The notes below the pieces were generated by a model that was not told where the DNA came from, did no database searches, and was given only the letters and a program-made list of their open reading frames with translations. From the IMG/VR virus record IMGVR_UViG_2526164665_000039: a stretch of DNA of 8,795 bases; one strand, given 5' to 3'. Below, piece after piece: positions 5,251 to 7,219 of this stretch (positions within the stretch are counted from its first letter, which is position 1; each line of letters begins with the position of its first letter). This DNA is from a virus (Duplodnaviria > Heunggongvirae > Uroviricota > Caudoviricetes). The translations under genes and the position numbers were made by a program.

Positions 5251-5276
5251 ATCCCTGAAACCTCGGTTTACGGGAT
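5251..5276. repeat. Invertase crossover site next to the invertase gene (gix/pix-like)
   Basis: 26-bp site ATCCCTGAAACC TC GGTTTACGGGAT with half-sites that are 10/12 inverted repeats around a central TC. It is also one arm of a 28-bp inverted repeat (5263-5290) matching the reverse complement of 6663-6690 at 25/28. Confidence 0.55.
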
Positions 5277-5630
5277 ACGGTAAACAGGGCCGCGAATGCC
5301 CTGCCATCAAACGGTACGGCTGTTGCAGCAAGCAGGCTGGCAAATGCCCGCAGAATCAATGGTGTCGCCTTTGACGGCACGCAGGATATAAACATTACGT
5401 CAGGAATGCCGGAATCAACGGCCAATCAGCGTTATGTTACAGGGGTAAGACTGGGAGCGCAGGCATTAAGCGGCGGACTGGAATATAATTACTCCCTGTC
5501 ATCAGGAAATGTGATTACCGGTTTTAAGACTAACGGAGACTGGGAAATGCGTGGTGGTGATGACCGTGTTTATTACAGACAGATACAATATTGTATTAAT
5601 GGGCATTGGGTATCCGCTGCAAGTATTTAA
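5259..5630 (+). CDS. Alternative tail-fibre C-terminal variable cassette (S'v-like), no own start or promoter, currently silent
   Basis: The frame opens after a stop at 5256-5258 and reads NLGLRDTVNRAANALPSNGTAVAASRLANARRINGVAFDGTQDINITSGMPESTANQRYV... to the stop at 5628-5630. It is collinear and roughly 60 percent identical by eye to the C-terminal 125 aa of the expressed fibre (NVGLRETVNKAADALPSGGTAVAANRL...). Confidence 0.6.
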   Translation, partial: NLGLRDTVNRAANALPSNGTAVAASRLANARRINGVAFDGTQDINITSGMPESTANQRYVTGVRLGAQALSGGLEYNYSLSSGNVITGFKTNGDWEMRGGDDRVYYRQIQYCINGHWVSAASI

Positions 5631-5751
5631 TTAACGGGGGCATAGCACACAGCAGCCAGCATCTGAAATATGCGTTATTTCAGACAAGCATTGCCTGTAT
5701 ATGGCGATAGTATTATTCCTGTTTTTATCATTGATTTACATGGTGATGTTT

Positions 5752-6273
5752 ATGCAACTGATTAATGTCAAACGATATTACCCGAAAGACAAACCCTATG
5801 GTGAGGATGTTCAGTATTTCCAGAGTGAGGACGGAAGGGATTTTTATGAATCTATCCCGCTTTTCACAAAGAAATACAAACTCTGTATTTCGCCTGTAAC
5901 GGGTATTATCTGCTCTGTTGCTGAAGATGTCTCTGCTTTATATCCGGCAGGTTTTACTGTTGTTGAAGTGGACGAACTGCCGGAAGGTGTGAATATTGAC
6001 GGTAACTGGCAGTTTTCTGATGGCCTGATATCAAAGGTGCCGGTAAACTGGAAGACGGTTGCTGAAAAGCGTCGCTCATCGCTGCTCCAGGAAGCCAACG
6101 AAACCGTGGATGACTGGAAAACAGAATTAAAACTGGACATGATTAGCGATGAAAATAAATTACAGCTGACGCGCTGGATGGCGTATATCCGACAGCTTAA
6201 AGAAATGCACTTTAATGATATTGCCAGTGAGGGGCATTACCAGGCGATTCCCTGGCCGGAAAAACCGGAATAA
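5752..6273 (+). CDS. Tail fibre assembly protein (Tfa, Mu U / P2 gpG family)
   Basis: Product MQLINVKRYYP...IPWPEKPE has the N- and C-terminal signatures typical of Tfa chaperones. ATG at 5752 follows GGTGA; the ORF track's 5701 start adds a hydrophobic extension that is unlikely to be real. It lies immediately downstream of the S'v cassette on the same strand. Confidence 0.8.
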   Translation: MQLINVKRYYPKDKPYGEDVQYFQSEDGRDFYESIPLFTKKYKLCISPVTGIICSVAEDVSALYPAGFTVVEVDELPEGVNIDGNWQFSDGLISKVPVNWKTVAEKRRSSLLQEANETVDDWKTELKLDMISDENKLQLTRWMAYIRQLKEMHFNDIASEGHYQAIPWPEKPE

Positions 6274-6278
6274 TTCAG

Positions 6279-6303
6279 AGGGTGCATTCAGCACCCTTTT
6301 CTG
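6279..6303. terminator. Hairpin between convergent tfa and tail-fibre genes, bidirectional terminator candidate
   Basis: 7-bp stem AGGGTGC / GCACCCT with a 5-nt loop, followed by TTTTCTG on the plus strand. It lies between the tfa stop (6273) and the fibre stop (6308). Confidence 0.4.
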
Positions 6304-6307
6304 TGGT

Positions 6308-7219
6308 TTACACTGAACTTACCGTTCTCCAGGCATTATTAATATAAATCTGAACCGGGCGATAATAGACCCCACCGATATTGTCCGCAGACCGGGAGCC
6401 GGTTTCCTGCACGTTAATACCGGAAAGCATACAACCGGAAGGTGCGCTGTAATTCCATGATATTTCATTGCCTCCGGGTGAATGATAGCTCTGTGCTCCA
6501 AGCTGAACATTCTGTACATACCGGCCATCTGCGGTTGACTGCGTCATTCCTGACGTGATGTTGATATCCTGCGTTCCGTCAAAAGGAACGCCATTAATAT
6601 TTCTTGGGGTGGCGAGTCTGTTTGCTGCCACGGCGGTTCCACCCGATGGCAGGGCATCAGCAGCCTTATTTACCGTTTCCCGTAAACCGACGTTATCGAT
6701 AAAAGCGCCTTTATCCGGAATGTCTGCGCCGTTCTGCTCCCTGCGCAGGTAACGGTTATCACCTTCGCTCCTGCTGTAAACATCCAGATTATTACGGGCG
6801 GTTTCCGCATTCTCCAGGTCGGCAAGGTTCTGATCCTTCGCCAGGGCATTAACGTCAGCGGGACCAAGACTGTTTTTTGTGGCAAGCGTCCCCAGACCAA
6901 GATAACCACGGGCCAGACGCTGGGCTTCCGCACCGGCATCAGCAATTTCTTTCAGGTTGTTTTTCCGGGAAAAGGCATTCGCAGCGATAATGGCTTTAAT
7001 GGACAGCGTAAGCTGGTTTAACTGCGCCTTATCCGGCTGAATACTGGCTTCAGCCAGAATATTCAGCAGTTCGGCCTGGAGAATATTCAGCCAGTCCTGA
7101 CCAATCCAGCTGATACCTTTTTGTCCGTCACCTTCGGTAAACCAGGTGGTGGTATTACTCTGCGCCGGAGCCAGTTCAGGCATATTCGCCACGCCGGAAT
7201 TATTATCAACATGGAACAT
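6308..7219 (-). CDS. Phage tail fibre protein (constant N-terminal part plus currently expressed variable C-terminus)
   Basis: 303-aa product from the ATG at 7219, which overlaps the upstream gene's stop as TAATG and is preceded by GAGGAG. The ORF track's 7273 start lies inside the upstream gene. The C-terminal third is paralogous to the silent cassette at 5259-5630. Confidence 0.8.
   Translation of the reverse strand: MFHVDNNSGVANMPELAPAQSNTTTWFTEGDGQKGISWIGQDWLNILQAELLNILAEASIQPDKAQLNQLTLSIKAIIAANAFSRKNNLKEIADAGAEAQRLARGYLGLGTLATKNSLGPADVNALAKDQNLADLENAETARNNLDVYSRSEGDNRYLRREQNGADIPDKGAFIDNVGLRETVNKAADALPSGGTAVAANRLATPRNINGVPFDGTQDINITSGMTQSTADGRYVQNVQLGAQSYHSPGGNEISWNYSAPSGCMLSGINVQETGSRSADNIGGVYYRPVQIYINNAWRTVSSV
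6677..6702. repeat. Invertase crossover site inside the tail-fibre gene (gix/pix-like, inverted relative to 5251-5276)
   Basis: TTCCCGTAAACC GA CGTTATCGATAA. One half-site matches the reverse complement of the 5251-5276 site at 11/12. The central dinucleotide sits at the constant/variable boundary of the fibre (codons for IDNVGLRETV). Confidence 0.5.

Follow-up and report, generated by a model that had tools for sequence, protein, structure and literature searches.

A Gin-type invertible segment with two alternative tail fibre tips and a single assembly chaperone gene in a Mu-like prophage of Escherichia coli

The stretch of DNA analysed here (hereafter, the window) comprises the 8,795 nucleotides of the IMG/VR virus record IMGVR_UViG_2526164665_000039 and represents the right end of a Mu-like prophage of Escherichia coli (Sp18-like, Mu family). 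Over positions 257-8795 it shares 99.9% identity with a prophage in E. coli O157:H7 strain Z1813, whose copy is inserted in puuB. Within the window lies a Gin-type invertible segment of about 1.4 kb (5263-6690) that contains two alternative tail fibre tips together with one tail fibre assembly gene, tfa. Sequence comparisons make it probable that this is a working, minimal segment of the Mu G type, in which one generalist Tfa chaperone would serve whichever tip is made and would be transcribed regardless of orientation. An earlier note on this DNA had described the segment as asymmetric, with two variable fibre ends and a single tfa; all of its coordinates hold, and only the start of the fibre gene is corrected below.

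The segment is delimited by two 26-bp gix-like sites in mutually inverted orientation, both inside a 179-nt inverted repeat of 75% identity. The left site (5251-5276) reads ATCCCTGAAACC-TC-GGTTTACGGGAT, with the 2-bp core TC at 5263-5264. The right site (6677-6702) reads TTCCCGTAAACC-GA-CGTTATCGATAA, with the core GA at 6689-6690, and is positioned within the fibre gene, at the junction between its constant (Sc) and variable (Sv) parts. The inner half-sites are identical (GGTTTACGGGA), and the outer half-site is degenerate in the right copy. The codons of the right site (FIDNVGLRETVN) occupy the same codon position as Mu gixL in gene S (FIQNLGLQETVN), and the TC core is common to both. The adjacent gene (4636-5196, minus strand) encodes a Gin-family serine DNA invertase of 186 aa (Pfam Resolvase, 5.8e-51; HTH_7, 1.7e-14) that is 73% identical to Mu Gin and retains the catalytic Ser9, a residue invariant in the alignment; the first 240 nt of the gene, the part in which invertases of this class are expected to harbour a Fis-dependent recombinational enhancer, share 65-82% nucleotide identity with Mu gin per 60-nt block. 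RefSeq annotates a 61-aa "hypothetical protein" at 5210-5395 on the minus strand, antisense to the left gix-like site and the silent tip cassette, which is probably a spurious call on one arm of the inverted repeat.

In silico inversion produced an uninterrupted open reading frame (ORF) joining Sc to the silent cassette, A1, so that both cassettes connect in frame to the constant fibre part, and annotated full-length fibres are present in flipped genomes. Among complete E. coli genomes, which are not phylogenetically independent, 183 are collinear with the window (B-ON, after the expressed tip B) and 26 with the flipped construct (A-ON). The matches reach 99-100% identity over 2.7 kb, and the junctions fall exactly at the predicted sites. 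The segment inverts in natural populations. Mu lysogens are said to approach a 50:50 distribution of the two orientations; the skew seen here could stem from slow inversion combined with founder effects, from clonal inheritance or from selection. With an adjacent serine invertase, inverted sites sharing a matching asymmetric core, in-frame 3' cassettes and both orientations represented in isolates, the segment is a member of the Gin/Cin/Pin/Hin-type fibre inversion systems. It departs from the class in its chaperone content: the classical Mu, P1 and e14 segments carry two oppositely oriented tip-chaperone pairs, whereas only one tfa is found here.

The fibre gene (6308-7219, minus strand) most likely starts at M19 of a 321-aa ORF and encodes 303 aa; this start agrees with that of Mu S and with the 303-aa coding sequence annotated in RefSeq. 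Its constant N-terminal part, Sc (6691-7219, minus strand), is homologous to residues 1-191 of Mu S (phmmer against PDB 5yvq_A, the Mu tail fibre S: E = 2.3e-48, query residues 19-216 aligned with chain residues 1-191). In the window orientation Sc is joined to the expressed tip cassette B (Sv; 6308-6688, minus strand; 126 aa), the C-terminal 75 aa of which (residues 246-320 of the 321-aa ORF) match the Mu S tip at residues 434-503 of the same chain; about 240 residues of the middle of Mu S are absent. The fibre is therefore of the Mu S type, combining an N-terminal baseplate-docking region with a C-terminal tip homologous to that of Mu S. The silent cassette A1 (Sv'; 5265-5630, plus strand; 121 aa) resembles the Mu S G(+) tip, with 59% identity to the Mu S tip over its last 70 aa, and is 54% identical to tip B (E = 5e-40).

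The E. coli variants of the prophage family have a constant tip B, and the tip converging on tfa is always B or its relative B2. The tfa-proximal slot, for its part, holds at least three tip types among the variants (A1, A2 and A3). The only features common to A1, A2, A3 and B are the N-terminal 50 residues and the C-terminal motif YYRPxQxxIxGxW. Immediately behind A1, positions 5631-5667 (plus strand) retain, in decayed form, the last ~12 codons (..HTAASI-stop) of an older tip cassette, apparently left behind when A1 recombined in. This relic is homologous to the intact ..RTAGST-stop end of locus L096 (strain STEC299) and to an ..AAVSI-stop relic in a gin-less lineage described below, and we interpret it as the trace of a recombination event in which one cassette replaced another.

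The only tail fibre assembly gene, tfa (5752-6273, plus strand), encodes a 173-aa homologue of Mu U/U'. Its product matches Pfam Caudo_TAP (PF02413) at 1.9e-18, with 67.3 bits against a gathering cut-off of 22.1, and Mu U (PDB 5yvq_B) at E = 1e-15, and hence belongs by sequence to the Tfa family (Mu U, P2 G, lambda Tfa), which is characterised by a role in fibre trimerisation and by binding to the C-terminal fibre tip. Its position is not the usual one of a chaperone gene directly downstream of, and co-transcribed with, its client fibre gene: tfa points towards the end of the expressed fibre gene, and 121 nt separate it from the silent tip. The two converging stop codons are separated by 34 nt (6274-6307), which hold a hairpin, GGGTGC-loop-GCACCC (6277-6299), with A/T runs on both sides. 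This hairpin scores as terminator-like on the plus strand and has the appearance of a bidirectional terminator. The gap measures 31-35 nt in all E. coli variants and always contains a GC-rich hairpin; most alleles have the GGGTGC/GCACCC stem with differing loops, and the B2-tip allele L097 has another stem.

A gap of 34 nt is too small for a cryptic second tfa. tblastn with two Tfa proteins matched the window at 5752-6270 only, and hidden Markov models (HMMs) of the Tfa N domain and C domain gave a single match in the whole 40-kb Z1813 prophage. Comparison of related prophages together with these sensitive searches thus yielded no second tfa between the fibre stop and tfa, as the earlier note had read from the window. 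To place this content among other systems, 80 IMG/VR loci with Gin relatives were sampled, both crossover sites were placed in 41 of them, and Tfa was detected by an iterated C-domain HMM. Two tfa genes were found in 23 of the 41 segments, one in 16 and none in two (the loci were not de-duplicated, and four of the 16 belong to the window family). Mu does carry two Sv-U pairs, as the earlier note assumed, but segments with a single tfa are not rare; at 16 of 41 they are common.

One proposal for the missing chaperone had been that a second tfa, cognate to tip B, was lost, such that the window orientation would yield defective fibres and inversion would act as an ON/OFF switch of infectivity. 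Such a loss would fit the presence of two tfa genes in Mu, in SfMu and in 23 of the 41 sampled segments, as well as the finding of only a terminator downstream of B. The related prophages speak otherwise. Segment variants were gathered from E. coli genomes, IMG/VR and a Citrobacter braakii prophage, and a search of genome contigs with the constant fibre part added four loci, two of them usable. All gathered variants carry one tfa even though their Tfa alleles are 64-100% identical: the layout recurs in E. coli alleles with Tfa 100, 97, 67 and 64% identical (L002, L003, L005 and L010-L012) and in the C. braakii Mu-like prophage (L006). For tip B the ratio of nonsynonymous to synonymous substitution rates (dN/dS) lies at 0.06-0.15, and for tfa at 0.08-0.24; both are under purifying selection, and a tip yielding dead fibres would not be maintained in this way. 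The one-tfa layout is conserved rather than a product of accidental decay. Since B-ON is moreover the majority state (183 versus 26), a gin-less B-ON lineage occupies three insertion sites, and the remaining tfa comes from a family that pairs with B-type tips, we consider a lost tfa very improbable and the ON/OFF switch unsupported.

The gin-less lineage provides a natural version of the window orientation in frozen form. It comprises prophages of E. coli M18, JE86-ST05 and S1-CAM-01-A together with seven uncultivated virus genomes (UViGs) from IMG/VR. These derivatives lack the invertase, the left gix site and the A cassette, and retain the fibre with a B or B2 tip facing a convergent tfa. 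A seven-codon relic of the A end (..AAVSI-stop) is found at an identical junction in all copies, which indicates a single deletion event. In the three complete genomes the prophage sits at three different places, namely within a type I restriction gene, beside citF and in bcsA, so that the lineage apparently spread after the deletion. Reading frames are intact in M18 and S1-CAM-01-A, and tfa has a dN/dS of 0.14 in this lineage. Spread of the lineage together with selection on its tfa implies that the convergent arrangement of fibre and tfa is viable and that tfa is still needed there.

Which tip the chaperone serves can be approached from the company that its family keeps. By position tfa goes with the A tip, and by family, as judged from sequence, with B. 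In the closest phage relative, Rac-SA53 (KU052037), the fibre end is 65% identical to B and is followed 2 nt downstream by a Tfa 51% identical to that of the window, while A1 matches the Rac-SA53 fibre in the last 18 residues only. In another 34 IMG/VR loci, B-type tips lie 11-15 nt upstream of a Tfa of the window family (53-58% identical). In contrast to the window, Rac-SA53 and these 34 non-invertible loci have no invertase, and their B-type tip (65%) and Tfa (51-58%) are encoded co-directionally, 2-15 nt apart. B thus appears to be the usual client of the window Tfa family. A second line of comparison concerns specificity. Identity between Mu U and SfMu gp51 is 86% over the N domain and 96% over the remainder, yet Mu U sits behind an A1-like tip (Mu S) and SfMu gp51 behind a B-like tip (SfMu gp52), which suggests that one type of Tfa can serve different tips in nature. 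Within the window Tfa family, the N domain is 58-96% identical regardless of the type of tip upstream. A chaperone shared by both tips is plausible on these grounds.

Conversely, tip B might fold without any Tfa, in which case tfa would serve only the A tip directly upstream of it, which is silent in the window orientation. Such an arrangement would agree with the common orientation of tfa and the A cassette, with the failure to find a promoter for tfa in the B-ON orientation, and with a pattern in P2-like segments that fits a chaperone-free alternative end (L056, L060). These P2-like one-tfa segments (L056/L059/L094, L060, L038, L072 and L075) likewise have a single tfa between two gix-like sites and occur in both orientations; L056/L059/L094 and L060 are the same segment in its two orientations. 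One of their ends is of the P2 H type (..ETRPRNISFNYIVRAA) and ends in a stop codon that tfa overlaps; the other is an unrelated 113-aa end (..FSWRVYCAPV) without a chaperone. Across the P2-like group, tfa starts at -4 to +2 nt relative to the stop of one end, adjoining or overlapping it, and the unrelated alternative end probably needs no Tfa, as far as its sequence indicates. The window differs on each count: its two ends are homologous, its Tfa comes from a family that partners the converging tip, and its tfa is uncoupled from the upstream tip. Tip B is, in addition, homologous to the Tfa-dependent Mu S tip; B-type tips stand directly before the window Tfa family in Rac-SA53 and the 34 loci, and before a Mu-U-type Tfa in SfMu; and the gin-less lineage, which has no A tip, keeps an intact tfa at a dN/dS of 0.14. 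Maturation of the fibre without Tfa, another of the options raised earlier, is accordingly judged unlikely.

Help might also come from outside the prophage, if tfa genes of further prophages resident in the cell provided the B-ON chaperone in trans. Shiga-toxin-producing E. coli (STEC) carry many lambdoid prophages, and the host genomes here contain several other prophages. The lambda Tfa can replace T4 gp38, and heterologous Tfa substitution is established. Dependence on such a source would nevertheless leave the purifying selection on the resident tfa of the gin-less lineage unexplained, and among the megablast matches listed for the Z1813 chromosome none lay outside the prophage. A phage relying on other prophages of its host would transfer poorly, yet the insertion sites and hosts are diverse. 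We regard this source as very unlikely.

Of the three options put forward in the earlier note, use of the oppositely oriented tfa in trans is therefore the best supported, because the Tfa family partners B, because Mu U and SfMu gp51 serve different tips, and because the gin-less lineage retains its tfa. The sequences establish the anatomy of the segment, its inversion in nature, the conserved one-tfa layout, the selection on tip B and tfa, the pairing of this Tfa family with B-type tips and the spread of the gin-less derivative; that Tfa folds both tips and that it is expressed from a promoter of its own in B-ON are what we infer.

The shared-chaperone reading also concerns the expression of tfa. 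Late transcription in the window orientation would stop at the hairpin and make no tfa mRNA, so that tfa would need its own promoter. The region in which such a promoter might lie is unusual. In the window, 121 nt separate the upstream tip from tfa; with the other cassettes this spacer measures 79 and 51 nt, and in the Citrobacter locus L006 it measures 69 nt. The same script, which counts from the first ATG of each ORF, gave no spacer above 26 nt for any other tfa in the survey of Gin-linked segments, most values lying between -4 and +3, and in Mu and Rac-SA53 the spacer amounts to 2 nt. The final 84 nt of the window spacer form a conserved leader, U1 (5668-5751, plus strand), which is a candidate site of an orientation-independent promoter or a 5' untranslated region. 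Among six alleles U1 aligns without gaps at p-distances of 0.02-0.12, while the synonymous divergence of the adjacent tfa in the same alleles ranges from ~0.3 in most comparisons up to saturation; U1 is far more conserved than the synonymous sites of tfa. It is retained in front of tfa whether the upstream cassette is A1 or A2-like (L096), and also in the gin-less lineage.

Several results count against a shared, independently expressed chaperone. A scan of four alleles found no sigma-70 consensus promoter at 9/12 upstream of tfa, and the best match in U1, TGGCGA-18-TATCAT, reaches only 8/12, which corresponds to chance frequency. No motif is common to the tfa upstream region and the putative late promoters of the prophage. 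The leaders U1, U2 and U3 are mutually unrelated, so each would need its own promoter, and the conservation of U1 could partly result from recent recombination or from an in-frame coding extension rather than regulation. The dependence among the genomes behind the orientation counts weighs on the same side. The promoter of tfa may be activator-dependent or otherwise non-canonical. The chances are about even that tfa constitutes an autonomous transcription unit, with an orientation-independent and possibly late-activator-dependent promoter in its leader, that encodes a generalist chaperone.

Two candidate elements in this region were discarded. A search for a Mu C-type activator site, which in Mu Pmom takes the form TTAT-N6-ATAA, found none. 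The palindrome CTGAAATA-N5-TATTTCAG at 5663-5683, which is unique in the window, was rejected as a conserved structure because the hairpin is lost in L010 and its left arm is coding in L096. At 5701-5751 (plus strand), a hydrophobic extension, MAIVLFLFLSLIYMVMF, lies in frame before the annotated tfa start. Five of its seven substitutions among U1 alleles fall at third codon positions, and its ATG is replaced by ATA in L010 and L011. The extension could belong to an N-terminally extended Tfa isoform, or could be a mere footprint of the conserved leader.

In the mechanism that we propose, the Gin-type invertase would flip the 1.4-kb segment between the gix-like sites and thereby join the constant shaft to either B or A1. 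A single generalist Tfa would serve both tips, where Mu employs one chaperone per tip. Tip B would be the constant partner, and the position before tfa would act as a swap-in slot for A1, A2 and A3. In B-ON, tfa would be transcribed on its own, most likely from the long U1 leader, and the hairpin between tfa and tip B would end both converging transcripts.

Comparison with the Mu G segment (S, U, U', S' and gin) underlines both the kinship and the asymmetry. The two phages share a transposase, a Mor-type activator, gp46-48 and com/mom, a homologous fibre N-terminus, the codon position and TC core of the gix site, and a Tfa homologous to U/U'; both window tips are predicted by sequence homology to have the Mu S tip fold. 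On the other hand, the window segment measures 1.4 kb against 3 kb in Mu, its tips are ~120 aa long against at least 300 aa, and it has one tfa against two, Mu carrying two Sv-U pairs. The spacer before tfa is 121 nt compared with 2 nt, the two window tips are 54% identical to each other, and a NanS-p-like esterase moron is inserted between gin and com.

The prophage Sp18, a Mu-like prophage of E. coli O157:H7 Sakai, belongs to the same family as that of the window. Variants with the A2 cassette (L002, L005 and L015-18) have a gin, a tfa and a B tip identical to those of the window, and we take L002 and L015-18, which come from old RefSeq accessions, to represent the Sakai allele. This Sp18-type variant differs in combining A2 with a U2 leader, where the window combines A1 with U1. 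Sp18 has been predicted to be intact, and its DNA is efficiently packaged (Asadulghani et al., PMC2669165); that paper does not discuss the single-chaperone asymmetry, and our literature search found no paper on an invertible segment with one chaperone. The P segment of e14 (stfP, tfaP, tfaE, stfE and pinE) and the C segment of P1 resemble the window in their YmfQ-type upstream protein, Pin/Cin serine invertase and alternative ends. Unlike the window, they contain four genes including two tfa (PMC12529663), and P1 gave two Tfa matches.

The C. braakii ATCC 51113 locus (L006) shows additional complexity. It has three gix-like sites, one with a TC and two with a GA core, among positions 6812, 8839 and 9205, and more than one inversion may be possible. 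Downstream of its invertase and outside the segment, positions 9934-11486 hold an additional fibre-like gene with collagen repeats, as well as a second Tfa that belongs to another type.

Fibre tips and their chaperones set phage host range, and engineers swap both to retarget phages and tailocins. If one Tfa serves several tips independently of the fibre operon, the rule that a tip travels with its own chaperone would be relaxed. New tips could then recombine in before tfa without bringing a chaperone, which would amount to a natural design rule for the exchange of receptor-binding tips, and a shared Tfa would explain the free exchange of tips within this prophage family. It would also be the first case of a Tfa expressed convergently to its client fibre gene. 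The host-range switch of this prophage bears on its movement between strains, and recognising the asymmetry as a conserved design removes the tempting but wrong reading of the segment as an ON/OFF device.

In the remainder of the window, as in the segment, the rightward direction of Mu corresponds to the minus strand. Directly upstream of the fibre gene lies a gene for a gp48/YmfQ-type baseplate wedge protein (7219-7779, minus strand; Pfam Phage_Mu_Gp48, 2e-22; YmfQ family protein in RefSeq), preceded by a gene for a gp47-type baseplate protein (7770-8765, minus strand). The Z1813 prophage, of ~40 kb, has a complete Mu-type gene set comprising a repressor region, transposase, Gam, a Mor-family activator and lysis, head and tail genes. 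Full-length matches to the prophage were obtained in about 200 of 5,426 complete E. coli genomes, and it is widespread in STEC. Positions 1-256 of the window do not align to the Z1813 locus, which places the window prophage at a chromosomal site other than puuB. Other copies have inserted into a lambdoid prophage tail gene (Z869), an hsdR-like gene and bcsA, or lie beside citF; such varied insertion sites are consistent with an actively transposing Mu-like phage.

The com and mom genes occupy 389-1126 (minus strand). Upstream of com (1277-1400, minus strand), the GATC cluster of Mu Pmom is retained without the TTAT-N6-ATAA element that follows it in Mu, and the region before the com ribosome-binding site is much shorter than in Mu. 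Control of mom may differ from that in Mu. Between gin and com/mom, the minus strand carries a three-gene insert with no counterpart in Mu: the NanS-p-like esterase gene (SASA domain and DUF6645; 2544-4536), followed by a DUF1378 gene (2172-2354) and a DUF826 gene (1891-2136). Trios of this kind typically occur in the late region of Stx phages. The esterase gene of the window is broken by indels into two ORFs (2833-4536 and 2544-2900), compared with an intact 679-aa gene in Z1813, and may represent either a pseudogene or the result of sequencing errors.

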